A stretch of 64,000 bases of DNA. Origin: an uncultured Planctomycetaceae bacterium. Its GTDB lineage: Bacteria; Planctomycetota; Planctomycetia; Planctomycetales; Planctomycetaceae. The stretch lies in assembly GCA_963813715.1 (NCBI GenBank), contig CAWFAK010000005.1:1088001-1152000 (forward strand), in the 5' to 3' direction. Positions 30,831 to 33,649 of this stretch are shown one piece after another (positions within the stretch are counted from its first letter, which is position 1; the number at the start of each line of letters is the position of its first letter). The translations under genes were made by a program, and so were the position numbers. A model generated the notes under the pieces. That model worked only from the letters and a program-made list of their open reading frames with translations. It did no database searches and was not told where the DNA came from.

Positions 30831-31651
30831 TGCTGATCAGATATCACCGATCAGCGCCCCGCTGACACTGGCTCGGAGCCCTCGTCGATACTCGGGGCTC
30901 GCGCAATTCAATCCCGTCCCGGTACCAGAAGAATTCTTTCACCACCAAGACACCAAGACACCAAGACACCAAGTAAAGGCCCACTGAGCGGATCGGGATT
31001 TCTTGGTGGGTTGGTAGTAACACCGCTCCGCTCATTGTCTCGCGTCCCCGTCCGGTTGTTCAAATCAATCCCGTCCCGTCCTTTCCCCCTCGCCCGGCCG
31101 CTTCGGCTGGGAGAGGGGCGGGGTGAGGGCCCAATTAATCCCGTCCCGATGTTCGTGTCCCGTCCTCGTCCCTGAATCAGTCCCGTCCCGGAGTCCGTTC
31201 CCTATCACCCCGGCGCCGGAGAGTGGACGAGGGGAGGGGCGATTTCGCCGGGATTTTCTCGGTGAAACAACGTGTCCCGTCCCGGCGTTGGTCCAAAGTC
31301 CCGGCGGTCCAAATTCCAAAGTCAAGATTGCGAGCATCTGATCTTCGACCTTGGACATTGGACGTTGGACCTTGGACTCGAACGGGAACGTGTCCCGATC
31401 TGGGCAAAGGCACCGCTTACTGGCGTGCGCGGCTCCTTAAGACAACTTGTCCGGGCCGGATCTCCGCTCACCGGTCGGACGCTGACCGGTGGGACTCTCG
31501 TCGGTGGGTCCACCCCCCTGATATCAATTGTGAGGGACCCGTCCCGGCGGGACCACTTTAAGGCGGACCCGGCGGGACAACTTGTCCCGGCGCGCCGCGT
31601 CTTCCCCCTCGCCCAGTCCGCTGGGAGAGCGGCTGTGTTTCTTTTCAAGAG

Positions 31652-32602
31652 TTAAGTGGTTGAGATTGCAGGGTTCCAGTGCGTGTTGTTTTTGACCATC
31701 GTGTTGAGGATCACCAGCAGCTTGCGCATGCAGGCGGTGATGATGACCTTGGGTTTTTTGCCGAGGGCTCAAGCGATCCGAGAAGGCTCTGATGACTGGG
31801 TTGGAGCGTCGTGCGCTGAGCGTCGCCATGTACAGGCTACAGCGCACCGAACTTCGGCCGCCGCGGATCGCGCGCGTCCTCGGAACTCGCCGCTGTCGCG
31901 ATTGAAGGGGGCCAGGCCGACCAGTGCGGAGATTTTTCGTCGACTCAGCTTCCCCAACTCGGGGACCTCGGCGATCAGGGTTGCACTCGTGCCCGGTCCA
32001 ATCCCCGGCGCGCTTTGAACAATCTCGGCCTTCTGTTTCCACTCGTCGTCCGATTGGACCAGCGCGGCGATTCGCTTCTCGAAGCGTCGGATCTGCTTGG
32101 TGAGCGCGTCGACGCTCTCCTGAAGGCTCTTTTTAACAAACTTGCTGGCGACGTTTTCTTTGCGGTTCATTTCGGCGGTTCGCAGCTCGACGAGCTGCCG
32201 GCGGCGGACGACGAGGTCTTGCAGTTCGAGCTGTTTTTCCGGGATTTTTGTCTGGGTCCGCGGCACGACGGCCTGCCCGAAGCGTGCCAGCACGGCCGCG
32301 TCGATCCGATCGGTCTTGGCGAGGATTCCGCAGGCTTTGGCGAAGTCGCGGACTTGTCGGGGGTTGACGACCGCAACCTGATGGCCCGCGTCGATCAGTT
32401 CGGCGACGAGGGCCCGCTCGTAACCGCCGGTCGCTTCCACGACGATCAAACACTCTCCGGGAGGAGGAAGCTTCTCTCGGAGTTGCCCTCGGCCCTTGGA
32501 ATCGTTTGGCGGCTTGAGCGACGTTCGCTCAGGCAGCACGTGCACGTCGAGGGTCCGTTTGGCGATGTCGATACCGACGAAGGATTTGAAGGCGACGTCC
32601 AT
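31652..32602 (-). CDS. IS110 DEDD recombinase/transposase, frameshifted near the 3' end
   Basis: [26 protein letters not shown] (catalytic Ser) and ACMRKLL. Confidence 0.95.
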
Positions 32603-32604
32603 GA

Positions 32605-32828
32605 CGATGTCCCGTCCTTGCGAATGCGAGCTCGAGCGGCGACTGGCGCCACGACGGCTCTGACGGCTGTTCGGGCTGATCTCATGAGACCGGCGGCGAT
32701 CCAGCTCTCCCACGGTCTTCTTGGACCTGAGGGCGGACGATCTACCGCCGGCCGCTGTGGGAAACCTTGCTTCGCTACGCTTCGCAAGCCTTCCCACAGC
32801 TGTCACCATCAAATGCGCAGATTGATCT
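32605..32828 (-). ncRNA. Bridge RNA of the IS110 element
   Basis: 5' hairpin plus two internal-loop hairpins whose loops match the target (TGGGAGAG, GCCCT) and donor (ACAGCCG, GCAAG) sequences. Confidence 0.85.
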
Positions 32829-33649
32829 TTTTTCAACATACAAGGGCCGGGGTGAGGGCGGATTTCGCGTCCCGTCCCGTCATGCGAATGTGTCCGGACC
32901 GGATCGGCCGCCCCTCGTGGTCAACTATCTCGTGGTCAAACTCCCTATTGAAAGTAGTTGACCATGACCCTGACCACGACCCCTTCAGACTCTTTCCCCC
33001 CTCGCCCCGCCGCGGGAGAGGGGCCGGGGGTGAGGGGGTCTTCGGGTCCCATCCCCGTTTCTAAATCAGTCCCGTCCCATTCTTTCCCCCTCGCCCGGCC
33101 GTCTCGGACAGGAGAGGGGCGATTTCGCCCGGGATTTTCTCGGTGAAACAACGTGTCCCGTCCCGTTTGGCAGACCAGTCCGGACCGGGGCCCCTGTTCG
33201 CGAGAGTGTCCGGACCGGGCCCCGACCCCCATCGCCTCTCTTCTCTGATCTTGGACCACGCCTTCGGCGGATCTTCGACCTTGGACTTTAGACCTTGGAC
33301 TCGCTTGAAGGTGTCCCGACCCACCGGGCAGGTTTTGATCCAGGAGATTGGACTCGCTCACGTCGTGGTCACGCTTGCCGCCAACAGCGCGCACGCAACC
33401 GCTCGCGCAAAAAGCCGCTCTCTCCATTCAGCCATAAAATCGCCACTCGGCCAAGATCAGTTTTTCATTTTCTCGGGAAGCCCCGATGAGGAGCGTCACT
33501 CCGCTTGCCACGGTTGGTCAGCCCGTGGACATTGGGTGCCCCGCCGGATCGAAAGCCCCAGCGCGCCGACAGCTCCTTCTTAAAGGGCAATAACATATTT
33601 GATCCAGTGGACCCCGGGCGGCATGATGGCGAGCCGGAGGAACCACGCG

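Follow-up and report, generated by a model that had tools for sequence, protein, structure and literature searches.

That elements of the IS110 family (IS, insertion sequence) target repetitive extragenic palindromic (REP) sequences has been known for a long time. Choi and colleagues reportedly found in 2003 that the natural targets of IS621 are REP-type repeats, Tobes and Pareja are said to have surveyed IS110-family elements inserting in REPs in 2006, and RNA-guided target choice in the IS1111 group, by means of a so-called seekRNA, was reportedly described by Siddiquee and colleagues in 2024. According to those parts of Durrant et al. (2024, PMC11208160) that bear on our case, the circle of IS621 rebuilds a promoter across its junction, bridge RNAs are predicted in most IS110 elements, and IS1111 elements carry their RNA in the right end and have subterminal inverted repeats of 7-17 bp. 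The donor loop of IS621, with its 2+8+2 layout, split right donor guide and handshake positions, is treated in the relevant section of Hiraizumi et al. (2024, PMC11208158), and a 2026 preprint on ISPpu10 (10.64898/2026.03.19.712850) assigns the role of a second specificity determinant to a stem-loop that lies 5' of the target. Here we analyse an element of this family in a 64,000-nucleotide stretch of DNA from an uncultured Planctomycetaceae bacterium (assembly GCA_963813715.1, contig CAWFAK010000005.1, positions 1,088,001 to 1,152,000), which we call the window and to which all plain coordinates below refer. In our opinion it is an insertion sequence of the IS110 group that would move by bridge-RNA-guided recombination as IS621 does, and we put the probability of this reading at roughly 93%. 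It is a new member of a group whose biology is familiar, though it can be read with unusual completeness, and it leaves what is known of the mechanism unchanged.

The element occupies 31628-32842 on the - strand, 1215 bp if one CT core is counted; intact copies measure 1218 bp. Nine full-length copies, 93-100% identical, were found by BLAST of the stretch against the whole genome (7.49 Mb in 18 contigs, 63% G+C, 82.6% complete), and the boundaries were set by aligning these copies, whose flanks differ, with 120 nt of flank each. Similarity begins exactly at TGTATG and stops exactly at ACAGCCG-CT, and the contigs of four public sequencing runs break near the same edges, at 31622/31623 and at 32846. 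All nine copies share the 5' end TGTATGTTGA and the 3' end ACACAGCCG. A CT core flanks both junctions in every one of them, directly preceding TGTATG each time, and in none of the nine is there a terminal inverted repeat or a target duplication beyond the CT. On the - strand the window thus reads ..CGCCCTCACCCCGGCC-CT followed by TGTATGTTGAAAAAAG at the left end and CTTGAAAAGAAACACAGCCG-CT followed by CTCCCAGCGGACTGGGCGAGGGGG.. at the right end, the left core lying at 32843..32844 and the left donor ACAGCCG (31636-31630) together with the right core CT (31629-31628) at 31628..31636. The inferred junctions of homologs show CT as well, in a search that itself required nT after the donor 7-mer. 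The first-pass annotation of this DNA had placed an element of the IS621 bridge-recombinase architecture between two CT cores at 31603..32862. That span holds the element but includes flanking sequence too; the two cores are there in the window as in all nine copies, every sequence item that it named was found in its place on the - strand, and the protein, the RNA layout, the guides and the target each agree with the proposed architecture, as far as sequence can tell.

The recombinase gene lies at 31653..32602 (- strand), as delimited from open reading frames (ORFs), the copy alignment, Pfam, NCBIfam and the match to IS621. Protein family tests were run on the intact copy cp3. They return the Pfam domains DEDD_Tnp_IS110 (PF01548, 3.2e-25) and Transposase_20 (PF02371, 3e-17), the NCBIfam equivalog NF033542 'IS110 family RNA-guided transposase' with 229.9 bits against a cut-off of 140, and IS621 chain 8wt6 at E 3.1e-42. 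Hence the protein has the N-terminal DEDD RuvC-like and C-terminal Tnp domains of the IS110 group, the Tnp domain being the carrier of the catalytic serine in that group. D12, E56, D98, D101 and S237 are invariant in an alignment of four orthologs with 59-91% identity and, to judge by motif context, would be the equivalents of D11, E60, D102, D105 and S241 of IS621. The transposase of ISCro4 (PDB 9t56) is as close as that of IS621 (E 2.9e-42, 148 bits, residues 7-307), in a comparison of the proteins alone. The nearest protein relatives, with 91-95% amino-acid identity, come from metagenome-assembled genomes (MAGs) of Planctomycetaceae, which agrees with the earlier suggestion of a planctomycete ortholog.

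Between the left end and the ATG (32602) there is a leader of 240 nt. An RNA in the left end, upstream of a homologous recombinase gene, is also what IS621 has, and the two elements share a 5' stem-loop, a variable target loop, a conserved donor loop and the CT core. Taken with the A of the ATG (241 nt), the leader folds at -106.1 kcal/mol (z = -4.24, with 0/200 shuffles as stable) into a 5' stem-loop and two stem-loops whose internal loops hold the guide motifs. All parts are on the - strand. The 5' stem-loop of the putative bridge RNA, GCTGTGGGAA/TTCCCACAGC, is at 32754..32800 in both the single-sequence and the consensus fold. Next comes the target-binding module (32688..32753), which both folds give as a large internal loop around a small hairpin: its 5' strand GUCCGCCCUCA (32738-32728) carries the left target guide, the inner hairpin spans 32727-32714, and the 3' strand GUGGGAGAGCUG (32713-32702) carries GGGAGAG as right target guide (32711-32705), with CU as handshake bases (32704-32703). 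The donor-binding module (32611..32675) consists, in the same fold, of a linker GA, the left donor guide ACAGCCGU (32670-32663), a linker CA and an inner hairpin (32660-32628), and then, by the fold and by comparison with homologs, of the right donor guide, CAU (32626-32624) plus CAAG (32620-32617), and the handshake bases GA (32616-32615). The loop motifs that the first-pass annotation had picked out from the letters are TCCGCCCT (32737-32730), TGGGAGAG (32712-32705), ACAGCCG (32670-32664) and GCAAG (32621-32617). Elements of the IS1111 group have the same recombinase family and RNA-guided target choice, but their layout is not the one found here: the right end is short, with 24 nt from stop to end (31652-31629; 22 nt to the CT core), whereas the 240-nt structured leader is in the left end.

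To describe this RNA in homologs, a covariance model, R1, was made from a seed of seven leaders, three from the source genome and four from Planctomycetaceae/Pirellulales MAGs with 59-95% protein identity, its structure being fixed to the helices outside the loops. It was searched over 94 loci collected via the recombinase from genome and metagenome collections. There were 91 matches at E <= 0.01, 87 of them on the + strand and 85 of these with distinct loop sets, and the full-length matches sit directly upstream of the recombinase gene. Over 89 distinct rows, 92.9% of the pairing cells are paired, as against 66.3% in column shuffles and 36-45% with slid partners; an alignment fitted to the model favours structure, but both controls are still far off. 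Compensatory change on both sides is seen in 49 of the 51 pairs over the same rows, and helix 1 of the 5' stem-loop has it in 15/15. The strands of the target loop differ in nearly every locus and those of the donor loop show few variants. A long non-coding left end with a variable first and a conserved second loop is what one expects of the IS110 group.

The guides can be read against the element's own ends and flanks. Loop strands were taken from the R1 alignment (85 distinct loop sets), the left end was located by a conserved C(T/C)GTAT motif and the right end by the donor-loop 7-mer, so that the ends were found independently of the target loop. In the window the ACAGCCG of the donor loop is identical to the ACAGCCG of the right end. 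Among the homologs, 79 of 84 loci show, downstream of the gene, the 7-mer of their own left donor guide followed by CT, as compared with 4 of 924 trials with foreign variants; there are twelve such variants, including ACAGCCG, ACAGTTG, ACAGTCG, ACGGTTG, ACAGACG and ATAGTCA. The right donor guide CAAG goes with CT-TG (51 loci) and CGAG goes with CT-CG (4 loci), with 0/55 discordant. The CAU of the window, three bases upstream of CAAG, can moreover pair with the ATG of TGTATG, giving a candidate split guide. In this the donor loop agrees with the IS110 group, whose guides there pair with the joined ends of the element itself. IS621 has the same arrangement: its left donor guide, 8 nt long, stands between two linkers of 2 nt, and its right donor guide is split, as CAAG and CAU, 3 nt apart, would be here.

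Joining the ends would also make a promoter, which the first-pass annotation had predicted. A -35-like box TTGAAA in the right end (31643..31648, - strand) comes to lie 17 nt from a -10-like box TATGTT in the left end (32835..32840, - strand), and the TAYnnT of the latter is kept in homologs. The junction motif TTGAnn-N-TAYnnT is present in 46 of 54 reconstructed homolog junctions, 45 times with a 17-nt spacer. As a sequence motif, the junction promoter is therefore there, and it resembles the sigma-70-like promoter rebuilt across the circle junction of IS621, as far as the cited part of that work describes it.

The right target guide of the window, GGGAGAG, is a 7/7 complement of the core plus the right target, or 8/8 counting the preceding U. 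Positions 3-9 of the 3' strand are the exact reverse complement (7/7) of CT and the next five bases in 63 of 79 distinct loci, and the five variable positions give 4.62 matches on average, the permuted mean being 1.64 +/- 0.12 (maximum 2.05 in 2000 permutations). Ten loci, L115, L080, L024 and L101 among them, show at most 3/5 right-target matches; these four and the six others may be rearranged copies or cases of a mis-placed right end. The left target guide was scored as a 9-mer in whichever of three registers, relative to the inner hairpin, fitted best; it averages 6.46/9, and the permuted mean is 4.46 +/- 0.14 (n=54), 30 of the 85 loci having been lost to an undetected left end or too little flank, mostly on short contigs, and one more to a short loop strand. 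In the 26 loci with a left-guide match of at least 7/9, the linker is 1 nt long in 17, absent (0 nt) in 6 and 2 nt long in 3. The left guide of the window, GUCCGCCCU, is followed by CA and belongs to the 2-nt linker type, like L060, whose left target guide matches its own flank over 7 contiguous bases.

Both handshakes fit in the window, C with G and G with C. Over the homologs, the target-loop handshake base (after AG) is complementary to donor position 7 in 78/82 loci, rare A-T and U-A combinations included, and the donor-loop handshake base (after CAAG) is complementary to target position 7 in 42/55, where 27.9 +/- 2.5 are expected from the control. One guide of the target loop base-pairs with left target plus core on the bottom strand, then, and the other with core plus right target on the top strand. 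Such a fit is beyond chance, since nine copies have the same ends and the same target, and since guide-flank matching over about 80 homologs exceeds the permuted controls. The first-pass annotation had proposed these two checks among others, the collection of copies with alignment of their flanks and a covariance model with guide/target covariation, and both came out in its favour. In the 3' strand of the target loop, GU, a 7-nt guide and two handshake bases follow one another as they do in the IS621 sections cited, from which the element differs in that the 5' strand has 11 nt instead of 13 and the right target guide is naturally 7 nt long, instead of 4 nt and extendable to 7. In this clade, then, the target is determined more sharply by the right target guide with its 7 nt, and the left target guide tolerates mismatch.

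A second, remote pairing was considered and rejected. CCGCCCUCA of the loop resembles CGCCCTCA in the left arm of the REP, 8 nt upstream of the left target, and we regard this as chance or as common ancestry of C-rich sequences: no more than 2/9 copies have the whole 8-mer, L058, L080, L090 and L104, which have the same repeat type, pair contiguously beside the core, and L060 shares the loop bases yet has a target that is not a repeat.

As to the target itself, 8 of the 9 copies split one REP-like imperfect palindrome at a CT. CTCCC stands directly 3' of the right core in 9/9 copies, the right flank of all copies has a G-rich arm of the type GGG(C/A)GAGGG, and the left arm ..CTCACCCC(G/A).. 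precedes 8/9, the left flank having the form ..C(T/C)CACCCC(C)G(G/A)CC(C). In the window the left half of the split repeat is at 32845..32858 (- strand; arm CCCTCACCCC 32858-32849, found in 8/9 copies, and left target CCCGGCC 32851-32845) and the right half at 31604..31627 (- strand; right target CTCCCAG 31627-31621 and arm GGGCGAGGGGG 31614-31604). Three unoccupied repeats lie in the same window: ..CCCGGCCC-CT-CTCCCG..GGGGCGAGGGG at 32996..33038 (- strand), ..CCCCGCCC-CT-CTCCCA..GGGCGAGGGGG at 31083..31129 (- strand) and ..CCCGACCCC-CT-CTCCCG..GGGGCGAGGGG at 294..337 (+ strand). Their uninterrupted ..CCC-CT-CTCCC.. confirms the rejoined form of the split repeat. A further 46 empty repeat sites with CT-CTCCC were counted in the genome, and the repeat is present in all 11 congeneric genomes searched.

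The earlier claims that a local REP family is targeted, and that three vacant copies of it are nearby, are in agreement with this. The first-pass annotation had also spoken of a REP hairpin; an imperfect palindrome there certainly is, but the fold energies of the three window repeats as DNA are no better than those of shuffles (z -1.2, -1.1 and +0.3), and for this reason we call the repeats imperfect palindromes and not proven hairpins. REP-type repeats are reportedly the natural targets of IS621 too. The present element differs from IS621 in its host, a member of the Planctomycetaceae, in the family of repeat, in the guide sequences and in having a left target guide mismatched to all its genomic targets, and it is known from sequence alone. 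ISPpu10 and ISPpu9 of Pseudomonas putida, and REP-inserting IS110 elements in general, are alike in being multi-copy and in occupying one fixed position of a palindrome, a likeness drawn from description, and differ in the repeat sequence; the core lies between the palindrome arms here, whereas the stem-loop of ISPpu10 is 5' of the target in the preprint portion cited above.

Two observations concern the repeats and their occupation. Two copies at C5:1206685 and C5:1208234 are in tandem in the same orientation, about 310 bp apart (span G000:C5:1206685-1209488), and so are two at C16:500651 and C16:502549, about 660 bp apart (span G000:C16:500651-503786); evidently the target repeats are clustered and collect several insertions. 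Further, a conserved unit GGGACGGGAC-ACG-TTGTTTCACCGAGAAA often precedes the REP-like palindromes, as at 31268-31283 and 33149-33164 (- strand), and is found in the left flanks of 6/9 copies of the element. The genome has 363 occurrences of GGGACGGGAC and 37 of GTTTCACCGAGAA, and the unit stands 8-30 nt before a REP left arm in 9 cases. A larger composite repeat may exist, to which the target repeat belongs. A joint of 31627 to 32843, skipping 1215 nt with 2 ambiguous letters, is present in contigs of two RNA-library runs. We did not use it as evidence of an empty site: its shorter side has 22 letters, both sides are halves of a repeat, and it may be another unoccupied repeat.

A natural case of retargeting is offered by a sister subfamily (L016, L023 and L026) in the congeneric genome G004, with 85% DNA identity. 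All three continue into CT-CACCC(C/T)..CCCTCTCCC and thus occupy the repeat's other CT, some 15 bp farther left. L023, the sole copy bearing a leader, has the right target guide GGGUGAG where the window element has GGGAGAG, a single base that tracks the T-to-A change of the target; its left-guide strand is UUGCCCCU, that of the window element UCCGCCCU. As for the state of these copies, the leader of L016 is replaced by unrelated sequence, the gene of L023 has stop codons and L026 is 5'-truncated.

The following course of events would fit these data. The element would excise as a circle in which ACAGCCG-CT joins TGTATG, bringing TTGAAA to 17 nt upstream of TATGTT, and the junction promoter would then transcribe the leader, some 200-240 nt, which would bind the DEDD/Ser recombinase. 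The donor loop would pair with the joined ends, ACAGCCGU reading the bottom strand of ACAGCCG-C and CAAG plus CAU the top strand of CTTG..ATG. On a repeat, the target loop would use GGGAGAG for the top strand of CT-CTCCC and, imperfectly, (G)UCCGCCCU for the bottom strand of CCCGGCC-CT, after which strand exchange at the CT core would place the element in the middle of the palindrome. The data themselves show the anatomy of the element, its copy number and target specificity, the structure of the RNA and the covariation of guides with DNA; transcription, circles and catalysis are steps that we infer only.

Several results weigh against this reading. The 14-mer spanning the right end, CT and the left end is absent from the assembly, and no circle-type joint (a step back of about 1215) is seen in the contigs of the four public runs, though contigs rarely keep rare forms. 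Contigs from RNA libraries cover the element, but contigs cannot show transcription. No bridge-RNA family of Rfam 15 was matched in an E-value scan of 30500-34000, where the sole match is sX15 on the opposite strand (25.3 bits versus a gathering score of 55, E 0.26); membership of the RNA in the group has its basis therefore in our own model R1 and in the architecture instead of a curated model. In the window copy the left target guide pairs poorly, with 6 Watson-Crick pairs and 1 wobble of 9, so that of the two target guides claimed by the first-pass annotation the right one stands in full (7/7) and the left one is weaker than implied. One mismatch is constant for all 9 real targets, a position at which the guide is C and the repeats are G, T or A; and copy cp4 and its relative L011 carry another 5' strand (..ACCCCGA), without CU, that matches even less. 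The left flank of copy cp7 (locus L006, G000:C16:392249-393481), GTCCCGTCCC-CT, is unlike the repeat, while its right target is as expected, CT-CTCCCAGG; a half-matched insertion could account for this, and so could some later rearrangement. The sole genomic site that is perfect for both target guides over 9 + 7 guide positions, GTCCGCC-CT-CTCCC at G000:C5:599025 (- strand; L126 ~1515-1530), is empty, intergenic and not a repeat. Lastly, the reading frame of the recombinase is broken in 6/9 copies, which may mean that the family is in decay here; the 317-aa protein is uninterrupted in three copies, cp3, cp7 and cp8.

The broken frames lead to the alternative that has the most to say for itself, namely that the element is what we take it to be but that the window copy is fully autonomous and the indels in its gene are errors of assembly. 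The first-pass annotation had called the recombinase frameshifted. It is, by two indels rather than one: compared with the other copies, 1 nt is missing near 31874 and 2 nt near 31768, and the open frame has 277 codons up to a stop at 31769-31771, breaking after residue 244. Most of the indels that break the six copies lie in homopolymers or short GC repeats; in the window copy AAA is read as A and CC as C, and the contexts are similar in cp2, cp5 and cp9. A genome of 18 contigs that is yet only 82.6% complete is what one would expect to see where marker genes are broken by indel errors, and the missing C and TT, that is, the intact form at both places, are present in the contigs of the four independent public runs (soil or rhizosphere). 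These contigs, however, were assembled from different samples and merge the many copies of an element into one, and they are silent on the window copy itself. The copies also differ by many substitutions (93-99% identity), which makes real decay plausible. The usual homopolymer error is one of 1 nt, and a loss of 2 nt from AAA exceeds it. We therefore regard assembly error as possible but somewhat doubtful. If the two indels are real, the window copy, whose ends and RNA are intact, would depend on the three intact copies in trans.

The misfits of the left guide, the flank of cp7 and the empty perfect site could reflect a tolerance of the left guide, RNAs of other copies acting in trans, later rearrangement or an added preference for repeat structure, such as the preprint reports for ISPpu10. 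It may be that target choice is not the simple sum of two guide duplexes and that there is either a structural layer contributed by the palindromic repeat or a 'half-match' insertion driven by the right guide alone. The right guide is exact in most natural insertions while the left guide pairs in three registers and never fully matches the real targets, and the sole perfect 16-bp site outside a repeat is empty. All this would fit either of the two, a departure from the simple sum that we nevertheless think unlikely. A stronger version, in which the shape of the repeat, as a hairpin or cruciform read by the protein, sets the target and the RNA loops are minor, is in our opinion very improbable. 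It would account for insertions in repeats despite 2-3 left-guide mismatches and for the vacancy of the single perfect non-repeat site, and the ISPpu10 preprint (10.64898/2026.03.19.712850) does have a target stem-loop as second specificity determinant. On the other hand, complementarity of the right guide tracks very different targets over 79 loci, many of which are not such repeats; the sister subfamily sits at the other CT of the same repeat with a right guide one base apart, its left guide being different as well; the target repeats fold no better than shuffled sequence; and one empty perfect site is no sample. Finally, that the leader is an N-terminal extension of the protein or an ordinary 5' untranslated region, and no RNA guide, is hardly credible: the frame is indeed open from the ATG inside TGTATG (a 356-aa ORF in the window, start 32839, and a 396-aa ORF in cp3, L001 position 320), but 80-codon open frames are common at 63% G+C, the leaders of cp4 and cp9 have 1-nt insertions that shift the upstream frame out of the recombinase register, homolog leader lengths vary by non-multiples of three (matched ~136-232 nt) with pairs kept by compensatory change (49/51), and the Pfam and IS621 alignments start at residues 7-9 of the 317-aa protein.

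If bridge-RNA-guided recombination is accepted as the most probable reading, the locus adds a well-documented natural system of this kind from the Planctomycetaceae, with nine insertions and a retargeted sister subfamily. About 80 homologs allow a direct reading of all four guides, of the two handshake positions and of the junction promoter, and such natural sets help to define which guide positions tolerate mismatch and how long the right target guide naturally is. The element also explains the 1.2-kb repeat family of this genome and marks its REP-like palindromes as insertion hot spots.

Concerning the surroundings, the element sits in a gap of about 3.3 kb (30310-33598) that is filled with short repeats and has no long ORF besides the element's own; the neighbours are a zinc-type alcohol dehydrogenase gene (29314-30309) on one side and an ORF (33599-34504) on the other. 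One of the repeats, some 145-195 bp long at 31402-31597, adjoins the right flank of the element but is outside it, and recurs at more than 10 other places of the genome and in the congeneric genome G002 with 83-95% identity. In a metagenome contig (L069:446-500), the left end of an IS110 relative abuts ..GGGAACAGCCG-CT, a donor-like right end of another element, which gives the impression of an insertion into the right junction of that other element. Farther away in the window, at 25083-29305, there are two adjacent or overlapping ORFs of 980 and 491 aa, each of which matches the YfhO membrane-protein model at its C-terminal end only; duplication of a gene could explain them, or a frameshift in one.

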